Source of the DNA: Deltaproteobacteria bacterium
Lineage (GTDB): Bacteria; Myxococcota_A; Polyangia; Haliangiales; Haliangiaceae
NCBI GenBank assembly: GCA_020630875.1
Contig: JAHDIH010000001.1
Coordinates: forward strand, 789,093-853,092
Length of the DNA: 64,000 nt
Reading direction: 5' to 3'
Shown here: positions 33,443 through 40,835 of the stretch, piece by piece
Position numbering within the stretch: the first letter of the stretch is position 1
How the letters are laid out: the number at the start of each line of letters is the position of its first letter
The notes under the pieces: model-generated
Databases searched by the model: none
Told to the model about the DNA's origin: nothing
Seen by the model: only the letters and a program-made list of their open reading frames with translations
Made by a program: the position numbers and the translations under genes

Positions 33443-34627
33443 ATGCGTGAAGTTGTAATTGTCGGCGCGAAACGAACGCCAATAGGAAGTTTTTTAGGAG
33501 CACTGCAAAAGGTAACGGCACCGGATCTTGGTAGCGTTGCGATTTCAGCAGCGCTTAAGGATGCTGGGATTTCTGGCGACGACGTACAAGAAGTCTTCAT
33601 GGGTTGCGTGTTGCCGGCTGGCGTCGGGCAAGCCCCTGCCAGGCAAGCGGCATTGAAGGCGGGAATCCCCGAGGGGACGCCTTGCACCACCGTCAACAAA
33701 GTCTGTGGTTCGGGATTAAAAACGATTCTGTTGGGAGCGCAAGCTATTGCGGTAGGCGAAGTTGATATCGTGGTCGCGGGCGGTATGGAAAACATGTCCC
33801 TGACGCCACACCTTCTTGTAAACTCCAGAACCGGGCAAAAGATGGGACCGATAAAAACCATCGATTGTATGGTTCATGACGGGCTTTGGGATCCGTACAA
33901 TGACCAGCACATGGGCAACTGTGGTGAGCTATGCGCGAAGGAACATAATATTTCTCGAGAGGCACAAGATGAATTTGCGGTCGAAAGTTACCGAAGGGCC
34001 GTGGTGGCACAAAAGGAAGGTGTCTTCGCCAGCGAGATTGCTCCGGTTACGGTAAAGGGAAGAAAGGGCGATACGGTAGTGGAGCAGGACGAAGAGCCCG
34101 GCCGAGGACGCCCTGAAAAAATCCCCGCGCTCAGGCCCGCCTTCCAAAAAGACGGAACGATTACTGCAGGCAACGCCTCCTCTCTAAACGATGGCGCTGC
34201 CGCGGTTGTCTTGATGTCGGCGGAGGAGGCAAAAAAGCGTGGGCTCACACCTCTTGCGACTATTGTTTCCAACGGACAACACGCGCAAGCACCCGAGTGG
34301 TTTACGACTGCTCCCGCCAAGGCTATCGAAAAAGCTTGCAGCCGCGCCAAGATCGCTCCCGCCGAAATCGACGTGTGGGAAATTAACGAAGCTTTCGCAG
34401 TTGTAAGTATCGCGAACAACAAACTACTTTCACTCGATGCGGCGAAAGTGAACGTCTACGGTGGTGCGGTTGCTCTTGGGCATCCGATTGGAGCTACGGG
34501 AACAAGATTGGTTGTCACGCTCTTGAACGCGATGAAGCGTGAACAAAAGACAACGGGAGGGGCCTCCCTGTGCATCGGTGGTGGTGAAGGTCTCGCGATA
34601 ATCTTGAAAAGGGAGCCATCATGGTAA
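33443..34627 (+). CDS. acetyl-CoA C-acetyltransferase (thiolase II)
   Basis: VVIVGAKRTPIGSFLGAL, active-site Cys (NKVCGSGL), and C-terminal GGGEG thiolase signature. Confidence 0.9.
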   Translation: MREVVIVGAKRTPIGSFLGALQKVTAPDLGSVAISAALKDAGISGDDVQEVFMGCVLPAGVGQAPARQAALKAGIPEGTPCTTVNKVCGSGLKTILLGAQAIAVGEVDIVVAGGMENMSLTPHLLVNSRTGQKMGPIKTIDCMVHDGLWDPYNDQHMGNCGELCAKEHNISREAQDEFAVESYRRAVVAQKEGVFASEIAPVTVKGRKGDTVVEQDEEPGRGRPEKIPALRPAFQKDGTITAGNASSLNDGAAAVVLMSAEEAKKRGLTPLATIVSNGQHAQAPEWFTTAPAKAIEKACSRAKIAPAEIDVWEINEAFAVVSIANNKLLSLDAAKVNVYGGAVALGHPIGATGTRLVVTLLNAMKREQKTTGGASLCIGGGEGLAIILKREPSW

Positions 34628-35493
34628 GTCAAATCGCCGTCATCGGTGGCGGGCAAATGGGACGCGGCATTGCGCAAGTTGCAGCTGCTGCCGGAAACCA
34701 AGTCAAACTTTTGGATATGGATCAAGCTGCCGCTGAAGCGGCCTGTCAACGACTCGAGCGTACCCTGGGCCGCCTGGTAGAGAAGGGCAAGCTTGAGAAA
34801 GAAACCTGCGATGGCATTCTTTCTCGAGTGACTCCTGAAAGCAACTACAGCAACCTGTCCGATGCTGATTTTGTGATCGAGGCCGCCCCAGAAAAAGAAG
34901 AAATCAAACTGAAGATTTTTTCGAGTTTGGCAGAGGTGACGAAGCCAAGCGCTATTTTGGCGTCCAACACTTCTTCAATTTCCATTACAAAGATTGGTGC
35001 CATTACTAAGCAACCCCAAAATGTTATCGGGATGCATTTCATGAACCCCGTCCCACTAATGTCTTTGGTAGAAGTGGTACGCGGATTACCAACTTCTGAT
35101 GATACCTATCAAAAAACCGTCACGCTGGCCGAGTCATTTGGCAAAACGACCATCGCCGCTCGTGACATCCCTGGATTTATCGTTAATCGAGTTTTGATTC
35201 CTCTGCTTAATGAAGCTTGCTATGCGCTGTACGAAGGACTTGGTACTGCAGAAGACATCGACAAGGGAGTTAAGTTAGGACTCAATCATCCCATGGGGCC
35301 GCTTGCTCTCGCGGACTTGATTGGCTTGGACACGTGCCTTGCAATTGCTAGAGTACTTCACAGCGAGCTTGGCGATGATAAATACAGACCTTGCCCTTTG
35401 CTTCGACAACACGTTGCTGCCGGATGGTTAGGACGCAAAACGCAGCGCGGTTTTTACGCGTACAATGAGCTCGGAAAGAGAATCGTAGAATGA
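34621..35493 (+). CDS. hbd: 3-hydroxybutyryl-CoA dehydrogenase
   Basis: Rossmann VIGGGQMGRGIA, 3HCDH N and C domains; 7-nt overlap with the thiolase gene. Confidence 0.9.
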   Translation: MVSQIAVIGGGQMGRGIAQVAAAAGNQVKLLDMDQAAAEAACQRLERTLGRLVEKGKLEKETCDGILSRVTPESNYSNLSDADFVIEAAPEKEEIKLKIFSSLAEVTKPSAILASNTSSISITKIGAITKQPQNVIGMHFMNPVPLMSLVEVVRGLPTSDDTYQKTVTLAESFGKTTIAARDIPGFIVNRVLIPLLNEACYALYEGLGTAEDIDKGVKLGLNHPMGPLALADLIGLDTCLAIARVLHSELGDDKYRPCPLLRQHVAAGWLGRKTQRGFYAYNELGKRIVE

Positions 35494-38592: not shown

Positions 38593-39744
38593 ATGGACTT
38601 TAGTCTTACAGAAGAACAACAAGACATTCAAAAAGCAGCAGCGGATATTGCTTCTCGACTTCTAGCGCCAAAAGCTGAAGAGAGAGACAAGAAAAGCATA
38701 TTTCCTCTGAAAGAACTTAAGCTCTTAGCGGAAGCCGGCCTAATGGGAATTAGTGTCCCTGAAGCTTTTGGCGGAATCGGCGCCGACTCCGTTTCGTACT
38801 TCTTAGCGCTACGTGAAATCGCCAAGGCGGATGCCTCGGTTGCCGTTACGGTCTCTGTAACCAATATGGTGGGGGAGCTTATCGCCGAGTTTGGGTCGGA
38901 GGAGCAGAAGAAAGAACACATTCCTAAGCTTCTTGACGGCAGCTACGTTTGCGGGAGTTTTGCGCTATCTGAGCCTGGAGCAGGTTCGGACCCTTCCGCG
39001 ATGCGTGCCAAAGCAGAAAAAGTTGATGGCGGCTACCGTTTGACGGGAACTAAGCAATGGATTTCTCATGGAGACCACGCTGGAATCATCATTGTATGGG
39101 CGCAAACCGACCCAAGCAAAGGGGTTCGAGGCCTCTCCGCATTTTTGGTCCCCAAGGGAGCCACGGGATTATCCGTGGGCAAAGCGGAAGATAAGATGGG
39201 ACTTCGCGGTTCCACCACCGTGCAACTGGTATTTGATGACGTAATGCTTCCCGCATCTGCACTCCTAGGCAAAGAGGGACAGGGATTTAAGTTAGCGATG
39301 ATGGCCCTTGATGGCGGTCGCATCGGAATATCCGCTCAAGCGCAAGGGATTGGCCAAGCCGCGTTGGAGGCGGCAGTAAACTACGCTGTCGAGCGAAAGC
39401 AGTTTGACGTTGCTATCATTAAACATCAGGCAATAGGAAACATGCTCGCAGATTGCGCGACCTGGCTTGATGCGGCAGAGGTGCTCGCGCTTTCTGCGGC
39501 TTACAAAAAGAGCAAAGGTCTGCCGTTTACCAAGGAAGCGAGTATGTCAAAAGTTTTTTCTAGTGAAAAGGCTGTGGCAATCTGCGATGCCGCACTGCAA
39601 GTTCACGGTGGGTATGGGTATACCAAAGACTATGAAATCGAAAGACTTTACCGTGACGTGCGAGTTACCAAAATCTATGAGGGAACGAGCGAGATACAAC
39701 GCATCGTCATCGGCAGGCAACTTGAAAAGGAAGCGACGCAGTGA
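38593..39744 (+). CDS. acyl-CoA dehydrogenase (second paralog)
   Basis: ACAD N, middle and C domains; YEGTSEIQRIVIG; 383 aa. Confidence 0.9.
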   Translation: MDFSLTEEQQDIQKAAADIASRLLAPKAEERDKKSIFPLKELKLLAEAGLMGISVPEAFGGIGADSVSYFLALREIAKADASVAVTVSVTNMVGELIAEFGSEEQKKEHIPKLLDGSYVCGSFALSEPGAGSDPSAMRAKAEKVDGGYRLTGTKQWISHGDHAGIIIVWAQTDPSKGVRGLSAFLVPKGATGLSVGKAEDKMGLRGSTTVQLVFDDVMLPASALLGKEGQGFKLAMMALDGGRIGISAQAQGIGQAALEAAVNYAVERKQFDVAIIKHQAIGNMLADCATWLDAAEVLALSAAYKKSKGLPFTKEASMSKVFSSEKAVAICDAALQVHGGYGYTKDYEIERLYRDVRVTKIYEGTSEIQRIVIGRQLEKEATQ

Positions 39745-40835
39745 CCCGTTTGATTCCCGTCGCGCTGGTTGGTGCTCTGCTGTCAGGGTGTGCGAGTCAA
39801 AAGAAAAATACGCCTGACGCGCCACAAGTAAGCGAGCGAAACGTGGCGGAGGACGGCGAACCGACGCTTCATGACATTCGAATTGCAGCGATAGAGAAGG
39901 TCGTCAACGAAACGTCGCAGTACCGCCATGACTGCTGGGAACAAACCGCAGCTAAGACCATTAACTTTTCCGGCACTATCGTACTTCGGTTCGTTTTTGG
40001 TCAGCCTGGCGAAATTGCAGCCATCGAGGTTTTGAGTAACAGTACCAAGCAAGACTCTCTGAGCGATTGCCTTGTTGCCAAGTACGAAACACACGAGTGG
40101 CCACCAGTTTTCGATGGAGCAACTCCCGTTGAGCTTCCTTTCGCATTTAAAAAAGTCGAAGGGCAGTACGTGGTGCATAGAGACGTGGTTAGTTCAGGGC
40201 AGGGGACCATTCGACTTCTTTCTGGTAAAAACACCGGCAACCCCGATGTAGAACTAACGCTGGTCCGCGAGCAAGGTGCGAATTTGTTGCAAACGGACTC
40301 CCTCGTGATTCCCATACGAGGGAACGCTTTTTTGGTTCCGGCTAAGTGCAATGCTCCTCATCGCGGCGCCAAAGGTCCTTGCAAAGGCTTACGTAAATTT
40401 GCCGCGGCAGTTCTTCCGAACGGTGAAGCGTTCTACACCACCCCAGAGCCCTCCGCGACAGCGCCAGTAATCTTGGTCGCTCGAATCTCGAGTCAGAGTG
40501 GAAACGCACCGGCGATTTTCGATCAAAAGCGAACGGTAGATATTGGTGCCGGGACGGCAAAGCGCAACATTCTTATTGATATAGAGAGGCAAAAAGCCCC
40601 GGCTTTTGCTGCGATTTTGAGCGGTTCTTCGTTGTTTCGAGTTGCCGAGCATACTCACGACAAAGAAATAGAAATGCTCTACGTGCTCGATGGCGGCGGC
40701 AAGCTGACCGTCGCGGGAGAGTCGTACATTCTTAGGGCTGGGCATGCTGTTCAGATACCGGCCGGGGTAAAACACGCTTTTGTGAGTGGTGACAACGGCA
40801 TCTCTGCGATTCAAATCTACGTACCCGTAAGCTAG
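39741..40835 (+). CDS. lipoprotein with an N-terminal TonB-C/AgmX-PglI-type domain and a C-terminal cupin domain
   Basis: Lipobox LLSGCAS; IAAIEKVVNETSQYRHDCW...GTIVLRFVFGQPGEIAAIEV...LSDCLVAKYETHEWP; cupin_2 motif HTHDKEIEMLYVLDGGGKLTV...AGHAVQIPAGVKHAF. ATGA overlap with the ACAD gene. Confidence 0.6.
   Translation: MTRLIPVALVGALLSGCASQKKNTPDAPQVSERNVAEDGEPTLHDIRIAAIEKVVNETSQYRHDCWEQTAAKTINFSGTIVLRFVFGQPGEIAAIEVLSNSTKQDSLSDCLVAKYETHEWPPVFDGATPVELPFAFKKVEGQYVVHRDVVSSGQGTIRLLSGKNTGNPDVELTLVREQGANLLQTDSLVIPIRGNAFLVPAKCNAPHRGAKGPCKGLRKFAAAVLPNGEAFYTTPEPSATAPVILVARISSQSGNAPAIFDQKRTVDIGAGTAKRNILIDIERQKAPAFAAILSGSSLFRVAEHTHDKEIEMLYVLDGGGKLTVAGESYILRAGHAVQIPAGVKHAFVSGDNGISAIQIYVPVS

Follow-up and report, generated by a model that had tools for sequence, protein, structure and literature searches.

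The C-terminal domain named after the AgmX and PglI proteins of myxobacteria has so far been understood in two gliding-motor proteins alone, where it forms the periplasmic end. In both of them, GltG and GltJ, this domain is TonB-C-terminal-like and is predicted to dock on the periplasmic tetratricopeptide repeat (TPR) protein GltD; for a further component, GltF, the prediction is beta-strand pairing with the GltG sheet (PMC11761067). As a family and as a fold the domain is already known, and the NCBI annotation pipeline names such proteins; the corresponding NCBIfam model for the AgmX/PglI C-terminal domain, NF033768 ('myxo_SS_tail'), has a curated cut-off of 40 bits, and by our own reading the 'SS' in its name refers to a cysteine pair. 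Here we describe a locus from a deltaproteobacterium of the family Haliangiaceae (assembly GCA_020630875.1, contig JAHDIH010000001.1, positions 789,093 to 853,092 of the forward strand; this whole 64-kb stretch is the window that was analyzed, and all coordinates below are on its numbering), in which three predicted lipoproteins with this domain, LP1, LP2 and LP3, are encoded among the enzymes of a putative short-chain acyl-CoA pathway, LP1 and LP2 between a tandem pair of acyl-CoA dehydrogenases (ACADs). Nothing on this arrangement turned up in the literature searched, which covered the domain, myxobacterial TonB-like lipoproteins with ACADs, and Myxococcus xanthus butyryl-CoA genes; no mention was found there of the domain in a motor-less form with a lipid anchor, of its tandem or cupin-fused architectures or of its phylum-wide placement between short-chain ACADs, nor of any described function for the LP2 family.

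Operon organization and enzyme content

Eight open reading frames (ORFs) on the same (+) strand are packed into positions 33443-40835 without usable intergenic space, as read from the ORF list and its translations, in the order thiolase (thl), 3-hydroxybutyryl-CoA dehydrogenase (hbd), crotonase (crt), acd1, lp1, lp2, acd2 and lp3 (Table 1). A preliminary description of this DNA had proposed the same order, with a cupin fused to the last lipoprotein, and the ORFs together with Pfam and NCBIfam matches bear it out. The successive junctions from thl to lp3 measure -7, -4, +1, -4, -4, +2 and -4 nt, the first two being the overlaps of the hbd start with the end of thl and of the crt start with the end of hbd. 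It had also been stated that the junctions overlap by 4-7 nt or lie 2 nt apart, which holds for all but one of them, as crt and acd1 are separated by 1 nt when the acd1 start is taken at an ATG within a longer TTG ORF. Promoter- and terminator-like matches inside the operon are no commoner than in shuffled sequence, and an Rfam scan of the window gave zero matches. From the overlapping codons and the gaps of -7 to +2 nt we infer a single operon with translational coupling.

All enzyme identities of the operon lie above Pfam cut-offs. The thiolase scores 426 bits against TIGR01930 (cut-off 240.55), and the hbd product reaches 402 bits against NF004474, slightly under the cut-off of 408. The best solved relative of acd1 in a PDB sequence search is the mitochondrial short-chain acyl-CoA dehydrogenase (E 3e-135), and those of acd2 are bacterial ACADs and butyryl-CoA dehydrogenase (1buc), with E-values of 6e-104 to 2e-96; acd2 is also 57-64% identical to homologues of Kofleriaceae and other Myxococcota. 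Both proteins contain the motif IYEGTSEIQR, with the catalytic Glu in YEG, and neither attains any NCBIfam equivalog cut-off. They belong to the short-chain acyl-CoA dehydrogenases, with a substrate range that is predicted from these relatives. The chemistry predicted for the pathway is accordingly named here as short-chain (C4; isobutyryl-CoA/butyryl-CoA in relatives) and not as general lipid oxidation.

Domain assignment and fold

LP1, LP2 and LP3 all exceed the cut-off of NF033768, with 50.5 bits, 70.2 bits over two stretches and 43.6 bits (residues 49-137), respectively. LP1 also matches Pfam TonB_C (PF03544) at 26.0 bits, against a gathering score of 24.6 bits; no TonB_C match at E<=1 was obtained for LP2 or LP3, and all three proteins fall under the cut-off of TIGR01352. 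The equivalog models for GltG and GltJ (NF033760/NF033761, cut-offs 650/450 bits) align with the C-terminal domain only, at 14-32 bits. Each domain contains a pair of cysteines (60/108 in LP1, 91/136 and 190/227 in LP2, 65/110 in LP3), and these pairs are invariant in alignments of 26, 49 and 23 sequences.

Structural evidence comes from LP2, for which an AlphaFold (AF2) model was built on 48 homologues. Its mean confidence value (pLDDT) is 84.7, with both domains above 90; residues 1-66 are disordered, and two domains of alpha-beta-beta-alpha-beta topology occupy residues 74-162 and 173-252. When the model was compared with the PDB using Foldseek, the top 19 matches were all C-terminal domains of the TonB/TolA family (TonB, TolA, HasB, FusB), the top 14 of them having a probability of 0.97-1.0, with template modelling scores to target of 0.45-0.67. 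The LP2 family profile had no significant match among PDB sequences, with TonB appearing only at E 0.2, so the claim of a TonB/TolA fold for LP2 is carried by the structure-based search. The conserved cysteines of LP2 sit in, or just past, the two helices of each domain, a placement that fits a predicted helix-to-helix disulfide in an oxidizing compartment. A single-sequence structure model of LP3 reached a pLDDT of 33.9 and was useless. The folded parts of LP1, LP2 and LP3 are thereby placed among TonB/TolA-C-terminal-type domains of the AgmX/PglI family, with the fold modelled for LP2 and the disulfide bracing predicted from the cysteine pairs. The AgmX/PglI (TonB-C-like) assignment of the preliminary description stands, and profile searches of Pfam and NCBIfam placed the domains in no unrelated family.

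A hidden Markov model (HMM) of the domain detects it in the 64-kb window only in LP1, LP2, LP3 and a compact GltJ-like protein encoded outside the operon on the opposite strand (Table 1). The last of these had been described as a zinc-ribbon membrane protein with the same C-terminal domain, and it indeed scores 50.9 bits against NF033768; it has a single transmembrane helix at residues ~232-252 and falls far short of the GltJ model, with 95.6 bits for a cut-off of 450. Its gene stands apart from other glt genes, with hemW/hrcA-grpE-dnaK on one side and ttcA on the other.

Conservation of the gene order

Single-sequence homologue searches with LP3 and LP2 returned the query alone, and homologues of both surfaced once an alignment from related loci was used. 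These loci, referred to below by L numbers, were obtained by scanning one genome per species with ACAD2 as the query, which yielded 80 loci; the host genome is not among the representatives. All loci were translated and searched with a domain HMM built from the window's five domain copies.

AgmX/PglI domains lie between the two ACADs in 54 of the 55 loci having a tandem ACAD pair. Three domains (LP1 and LP2) are found there in 24 loci, two (LP2 only) in another 24, one in 5 loci and four in 1 locus. Every domain-bearing pair (54/54) is labelled as Myxococcota or as an unclassified delta- or proteobacterial metagenome-assembled genome (MAG), the labels including Kofleriaceae, Nannocystineae, Polyangiales, Sandaracinaceae and Myxococcaceae. 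The sole domain-free pair belongs to a Desulfobacteraceae MAG, and the actinobacterial matches of the scan have a lone ACAD. Outside the operon the domain occurs ~6 times across ~1 Mb of related loci. The 54 loci are related by descent and so are not independent events; their kinship notwithstanding, these counts indicate that the domain is found between ACADs far more often than chance would place it there. Nearly all of the sampled relatives have their lipoprotein genes linked to ACAD genes. This is the opposite of what the preliminary description had named as the mark of a chance insertion, namely their being absent or unlinked in all relatives, and the comparison of loci shows that the placement is not of that kind. 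A full HMMER search shows the wider reach of the families, with ~420 representatives of the LP2 family at 50% identity (E<=1e-30) and 20,541 proteins having the domain at E<=1e-3.

The surroundings of this core differ among lineages. The Kofleriaceae-type MAGs have their genes in the order NifS-like, thl, hbd, crt, ACAD, LP1, LP2, ACAD, B12-binding subunit, LP3, MeaB, a conserved lipoprotein that we call c2, and a geranylgeranyl-reductase-family gene. Polyangiales-type loci contain ACAD-LP2-ACAD only, next to unrelated genes and one for a large TPR protein of the cytoplasm, and thl, hbd and crt are absent from their neighborhood. In Myxococcaceae MAGs the arrangement is hbd-crt-ACAD-domain-ACAD, and the inter-ACAD protein of L033, L036 and L039 is a single domain of ~135 aa that abuts both ACADs. 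The tight spacing is also seen in L083-L085, where genes had been called independently. Across these loci export and position are conserved, and the mode of anchoring and the cupin fusion vary by lineage.

Export signals, lipid anchors and the cupins of LP3

The lipobox closes a signal peptide in each of the three proteins (VVGC in LP1, AVGC in LP2, LSGC in LP3), no further hydrophobic segment follows the signal peptide, and the number of cysteines besides the lipobox Cys is even in all of them. A short Pro/Glu-rich linker precedes the domain of LP1, and a disordered acidic linker lies ahead of the domains of LP2. Among orthologues, LP1 has a CGG lipobox in 17 loci, Cys14 of the LP2 lipobox is at least 90% conserved alongside invariant Cys pairs, and the lipobox Cys is invariant in LP3 and present in LP1. 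Compared with their orthologues in L042, the lipoproteins are 28-33% identical and the enzymes 59-71%; the lipobox, the cysteine pairs and a number of Gly, Pro and aromatic residues are nevertheless retained in the lipoprotein orthologues. LP1, LP2 and LP3 thus appear to be fast-evolving yet constrained proteins under purifying selection, and they are predicted to be exported and lipidated. In M. xanthus lipoproteins, Lys at position +2 is the inner-membrane retention signal (PMC3222651). This Lys is absent from LP1, LP2 and LP3, and by the M. xanthus rule they are therefore probably anchored in the outer membrane, facing the periplasm.

LP3 consists of an AgmX/PglI domain, a degenerate cupin and a C-terminal cupin with a metal site. 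The lipoprotein-cupin fusion claimed in the preliminary description is real, since LP3 passes both NF033768 and Pfam Cupin_2 (residues 302-349, 50 bits, cut-off 27.2), and it varies by lineage. Residues His304, His306, Glu311 and His345 are invariant in 23 LP3 orthologues, as are Cys65 and Cys110. Searched against the PDB, the LP3 family profile matches the bicupin YxaG, a quercetin 2,3-dioxygenase (E 8e-22), and oxalate decarboxylases (~1e-6). The C-terminal cupin is accordingly of the metal-binding type and would be periplasmic, its metal binding and activity being predicted from the profiles. Some relatives have an intact first cupin half, which carries a His-x-His motif of its own; in the window LP3 this half is degenerate. 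The L083 and L084 bicupins begin with a plain signal peptide and lack an AgmX/PglI domain, and the fusion of the domain with the cupins is lineage-specific. The C-terminal tail PAGPEQRFK, conserved in LP3 orthologues, is missing from the window LP3, which has no sign of a frameshift.

The c2 protein is the fourth conserved lipoprotein of the locus and has the lipobox FVSC. Its family (~230 aa) is present in 21 related loci, always downstream of LP3/MeaB (the L003 copy lies at 13810-14514), and is characterized by a strongly conserved mature N-terminus, CGLI-D/S-SDVTNFDLTLP, and by six conserved cysteines. No Pfam or NCBIfam match was found for c2.

Possible role of the lipoproteins

LP1, LP2 and LP3 have no transmembrane helix of the kind that couples TonB, TolA, GltG and GltJ to a motor, and so cannot transduce energy. 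The reading to which we lean, with a confidence that falls somewhat short of even, is that they are motor-less docking modules whose co-expression with C4 acyl-CoA catabolism serves a step in the envelope. Anchored in the outer membrane by their lipid, they would be passive and would grip a partner through pairing of beta-strands, with the flexible acidic or proline-rich linker giving them the reach; the envelope step would be needed whenever the short-chain acyl-CoA pathway is on and would most plausibly consist in handling or acquiring the substrate of the pathway, and through LP3 an enzyme or binding protein of the metal-cupin type would be brought to the same place. That such a step exists is suggested by the retention of the domain between ACADs in every sampled myxobacterial lineage and by the interleaving of LP1, LP2, LP3 and c2 with C4 enzymes. 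Other exported proteins of the locus also hold fixed slots, the bicupin between the B12-binding subunit and MeaB, and c2 after MeaB. The preliminary description had suggested an envelope function tied to lipid or fatty-acid metabolism; the linkage to ACADs has proved to be conserved, the chemistry is short-chain rather than that of lipids in general, and the tie itself is drawn from gene order.

Several observations weigh against this reading. In the inter-ACAD protein of the Myxococcaceae MAGs the signal peptide is a plain one that lacks the lipobox Cys, which means that lipid anchoring is not essential to the association with ACADs. The LP2 homologue of L088 (1201-1815) has no nearby ACAD and lies between heme-oxygenase-like and TPR genes, and that of L087 (7613-8588) adjoins just a 76-aa C-terminal remnant of an ACAD; both are shorter than usual. 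The locus holds no conserved transporter, TonB-dependent receptor, porin or recognized ligand- or lipid-binding domain. The docking partner is a postulate, conserved co-transcription can reflect shared regulation alone, and the outer-membrane assignment uses a rule borrowed from another species.

Shared regulation is the most obvious of the other explanations. A TonB-C-like gene may have entered between duplicated ACADs early and hitch-hiked there ever since, kept because the operon expresses it at suitable times, such as those of starvation or predation, in which the cell burns amino acids and lipids; its function would then be a structural one, or one of docking on peptidoglycan or on proteins, and unrelated to acyl-CoA metabolism. 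Well-known operons hold unrelated genes together for regulation, the locus offers neither chemical logic nor a transporter, and the known members of the family act in motility and not in metabolism. The LP2 homologues found away from ACADs in L087 and L088 point the same way, as does the manner in which LP1, the AgmX/PglI domain of LP3 and the lipid anchor come and go among lineages. We take this explanation seriously and would put it at about one case in three; it has to accommodate the survival of the ACAD-domain-ACAD trio in settings as different as those of Kofleriaceae and Polyangiales, the four separate exported proteins that each keep a fixed slot among the enzymes, and the low background of the domain in the flanks, just ~6 per Mb. 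A more elaborate version of the docking idea goes in the other direction, and we consider it unlikely: LP1, LP2, LP3 and c2 would form a periplasmic/outer-membrane assembly, with the TonB-C-like domains as connectors, that captures or processes an external substrate whose product is burnt by the operon enzymes. The substrate might, for instance, come from prey and be a short-chain, a branched-chain or a beta-dicarbonyl compound, and relatives would add the B12 mutase to the enzymes that burn the product.

Two further explanations start from the domain itself. In Escherichia coli, a periplasmic C-terminal fragment of TonB is dominant-negative, and by analogy the lipid-anchored domains could act as decoys or gates that occupy the TonB boxes of outer-membrane receptors and damp or re-route TonB-dependent uptake during short-chain catabolism. 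Their fold is that of the TonB box-binding domain, they have no motor-coupling helix, and the predicted outer-membrane anchor would place them beside the receptors. We nevertheless judge this improbable, as neither the surroundings of the operon in the window nor the related loci contain a gene for a TonB-dependent receptor, the sequences resemble true TonB only marginally, and the AgmX/PglI domains of the single system that has been studied are predicted to bind a TPR protein and not the TonB box (PMC11761067). More improbable still would be that the lipoproteins are accessories of the gliding (Agl-Glt) machine or of a paralogous envelope machine, docking on GltD-like proteins and encoded here by happenstance. 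They share the domain family of GltG and GltJ, the window has a GltJ-like gene at a distance of 9 kb, and two Sandaracinus MAGs (L044, L045) have one 2-3 kb upstream of their ACAD-LP2-ACAD trio. Their low scores against the GltG and GltJ models (14-32 bits), the lack of an FHA, zinc-ribbon or GYF domain or a transmembrane helix in any of them, and the lack of other glt genes in the window all speak against such a role, and so does the large TPR protein of the Polyangiales loci, which has neither a signal peptide nor a significant GltD match nor a homologue in the window.

Three further candidates were set aside. The TPR protein just mentioned (~1260 aa, upstream of the Polyangiales trio) was considered as a GltD-like docking partner and rejected on the same grounds, its TPR matches being generic only. 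B12 uptake via a TonB-like route does not serve as a general explanation, as the core trio exists without B12 genes in Polyangiales, in L083 and in the window. Membrane tethering of the polycistronic mRNA as the sole role of the signal peptides is unlikely, since it would leave the conservation of the fold and of the cysteine pairs unexplained.

If the link between the docking modules and the pathway is real, the repertoire of the TonB/TolA fold would widen beyond energy transduction, and predatory bacteria that feed on amino acids and lipids would possess an unrecognized envelope step in the handling of short-chain substrates. Should the assembly of LP1, LP2, LP3 and c2 exist, it would represent a myxobacterial counterpart of a nutrient-utilization locus, built on a motor-less TonB fold. 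Even if co-regulation is all that connects the genes, the locus would still be a clean example of unrelated compartments brought together in one tightly packed operon. Myxococcaceae carry the trio, which makes a deletion test probably feasible, provided that a tractable species such as M. xanthus has it.

Neighboring genes

Table 1. Features of the operon and of its surroundings in the 64-kb window.
Feature	Positions	Strand	Evidence and remarks
Compact GltJ-like protein, outside the operon	26086-27348	-	Zn_ribbon_4 1-33, GYF_2 91-140, NF033768 330-414
Amino-acid carrier (agcS family), 656-aa ORF	29320-31290	-	match confined to residues 219-647
MshEN-domain protein, 328 aa	31265-32251	-	overlapped by the agcS ORF
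NifS-like class-V aminotransferase	32299-33375	+	TIGR03402 287.7 bits, under model cut-off
thl, acetyl-CoA acetyltransferase (thiolase)	33443-34627	+	Pfam Thiolase_N E 1e-99, Thiolase_C E 8e-42
hbd, 3-hydroxybutyryl-CoA dehydrogenase	34621-35493	+	Pfam 3HCDH_N and 3HCDH
crt, short-chain enoyl-CoA hydratase (crotonase)	35490-36269	+	Pfam ECH_1 215.7 bits
acd1, short-chain acyl-CoA dehydrogenase 1	36271-37422	+	three ACAD Pfam domains
lp1 (LP1, 137 aa)	37419-37832	+	predicted lipoprotein, one AgmX/PglI domain; overlaps acd1 by 4 nt
lp2 (LP2, 253 aa)	37829-38590	+	predicted lipoprotein, two tandem AgmX/PglI domains; overlaps lp1 by 4 nt
acd2, short-chain acyl-CoA dehydrogenase 2	38593-39744	+	ACAD Pfam domains; 2 nt after lp2
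lp3 (LP3, 364 aa, GTG start)	39741-40835	+	predicted lipoprotein, AgmX/PglI domain and two cupins; overlaps acd2 by 4 nt
687-aa protein	41143-43206	+	Pfam eCIS_core/DUF4157 26 bits; HEVIH motif
Multi-pass membrane protein, 223 aa	43210-43881	+	no family match
c2, 221-aa lipoprotein, the fourth conserved in the locus, with six Cys besides that of the lipobox	44040-44705	+	tblastn with L003 c2, E 2e-16
CoA-transferase subunits B and A	44702-46035	-	CoA_trans E 1.5e-52 and 3.6e-77; convergent on c2
TRAM/tRNA U5-methyltransferase gene	46739-47902		

The NifS-like gene upstream of thl is separated from it by 67 nt, with a hairpin at 33389-33405, and the same family sits immediately upstream of thl in the Kofleriaceae loci as well. 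Downstream, the Kofleriaceae LP3 gene is flanked by genes for a 136-aa B12-binding protein (TIGR00640, 165 bits) and for MeaB (TIGR00750, 294 bits, cut-off 240.75), for which L003/L042 (11149-13684) served as comparison loci. By family membership the first is the small subunit of an acyl-CoA mutase and the second its G-protein chaperone, and such mutase parts would fit an interconversion of isobutyryl-CoA and butyryl-CoA. Neither gene is present in the 64-kb window, where acd2 overlaps lp3 directly with no B12-binding subunit between them.

Between lp3 and c2 of the window lie two genes that relatives lack, encoding the 687-aa protein and the multi-pass membrane protein; relatives have MeaB or a third ACAD in their place. 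The pair looks like an insertion and is possibly toxin/immunity-like. The CoA-transferase pair beyond c2 occupies the same relative position in L083, and its presence beside the locus suggests that the whole neighborhood is devoted to acyl-CoA metabolism of the C4/ketone-body type. Together with the TRAM/tRNA U5-methyltransferase gene, the CoA-transferase pair also indicates that the synteny block reaches well beyond the coordinates of the operon. On the other side of the operon, the agcS match begins at residue 219 of its ORF, and the true start is therefore probably further in.

The G+C content of the window is ~50%, compared with 53-75% in the myxobacterial loci with the same gene order, and the loci of lowest G+C (53-59%) are also its closest relatives. 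Six window proteins were checked and all are singletons at 90% identity; the host is a member of a poorly sampled lineage.

Comparison with known systems

The four enzyme families of the clostridial thl-hbd-crt-bcd butyryl-CoA set, which are also those of aerobic short-chain beta-oxidation, are found here in one operon. In contrast to the clostridial set, the window operon has no etfAB genes, contains two ACAD paralogues and has three exported proteins interleaved with the enzymes, and its relatives add an IcmB-like B12-binding subunit and MeaB. A locus that combines envelope lipoproteins with substrate-consuming enzymes is also known from the polysaccharide utilization loci of Bacteroidota, to which the present one may be compared by analogy of function only; the window locus differs from them in having neither a SusC-type receptor nor a SusD-type binding protein.

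The C-terminal cupin of LP3 shares the His-x-His...Glu...His ligands of the Bacillus subtilis bicupins YxaG and OxdC. Unlike these, LP3 is predicted to be exported and lipid-anchored, is fused to an AgmX/PglI domain in this lineage, has a degenerate N-terminal cupin and is encoded among acyl-CoA enzymes.

As regards the domain itself, the LP2 model has in common with the C-terminal domains of TonB and TolA (PDB 2gsk_B, 1u07, 2x9a_B) a three-stranded sheet and two helices, whereas LP1, LP2 and LP3 are without the N-terminal membrane helix for ExbB or TolQ and have an extra predicted disulfide and a predicted lipid anchor. Closest of all are GltG (PglI) and GltJ (AgmX) of the M. xanthus Agl-Glt machine, which belong to the same NF033768 family, are likewise periplasmic in this part, have paired cysteines and a TonB-C-like fold, and probably share with LP1, LP2 and LP3 a role in protein docking. 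The two Glt proteins are bitopic in the inner membrane, where they are coupled to the AglRQS motor, and their cytoplasmic domains are of the FHA or zinc-ribbon/GYF type. The lipoproteins, by contrast, have a lipobox in place of the transmembrane helix and no cytoplasmic part, and the domain is repeated in tandem in LP2 and fused to cupins in LP3; their genes belong to a metabolic operon and not to a glt cluster.

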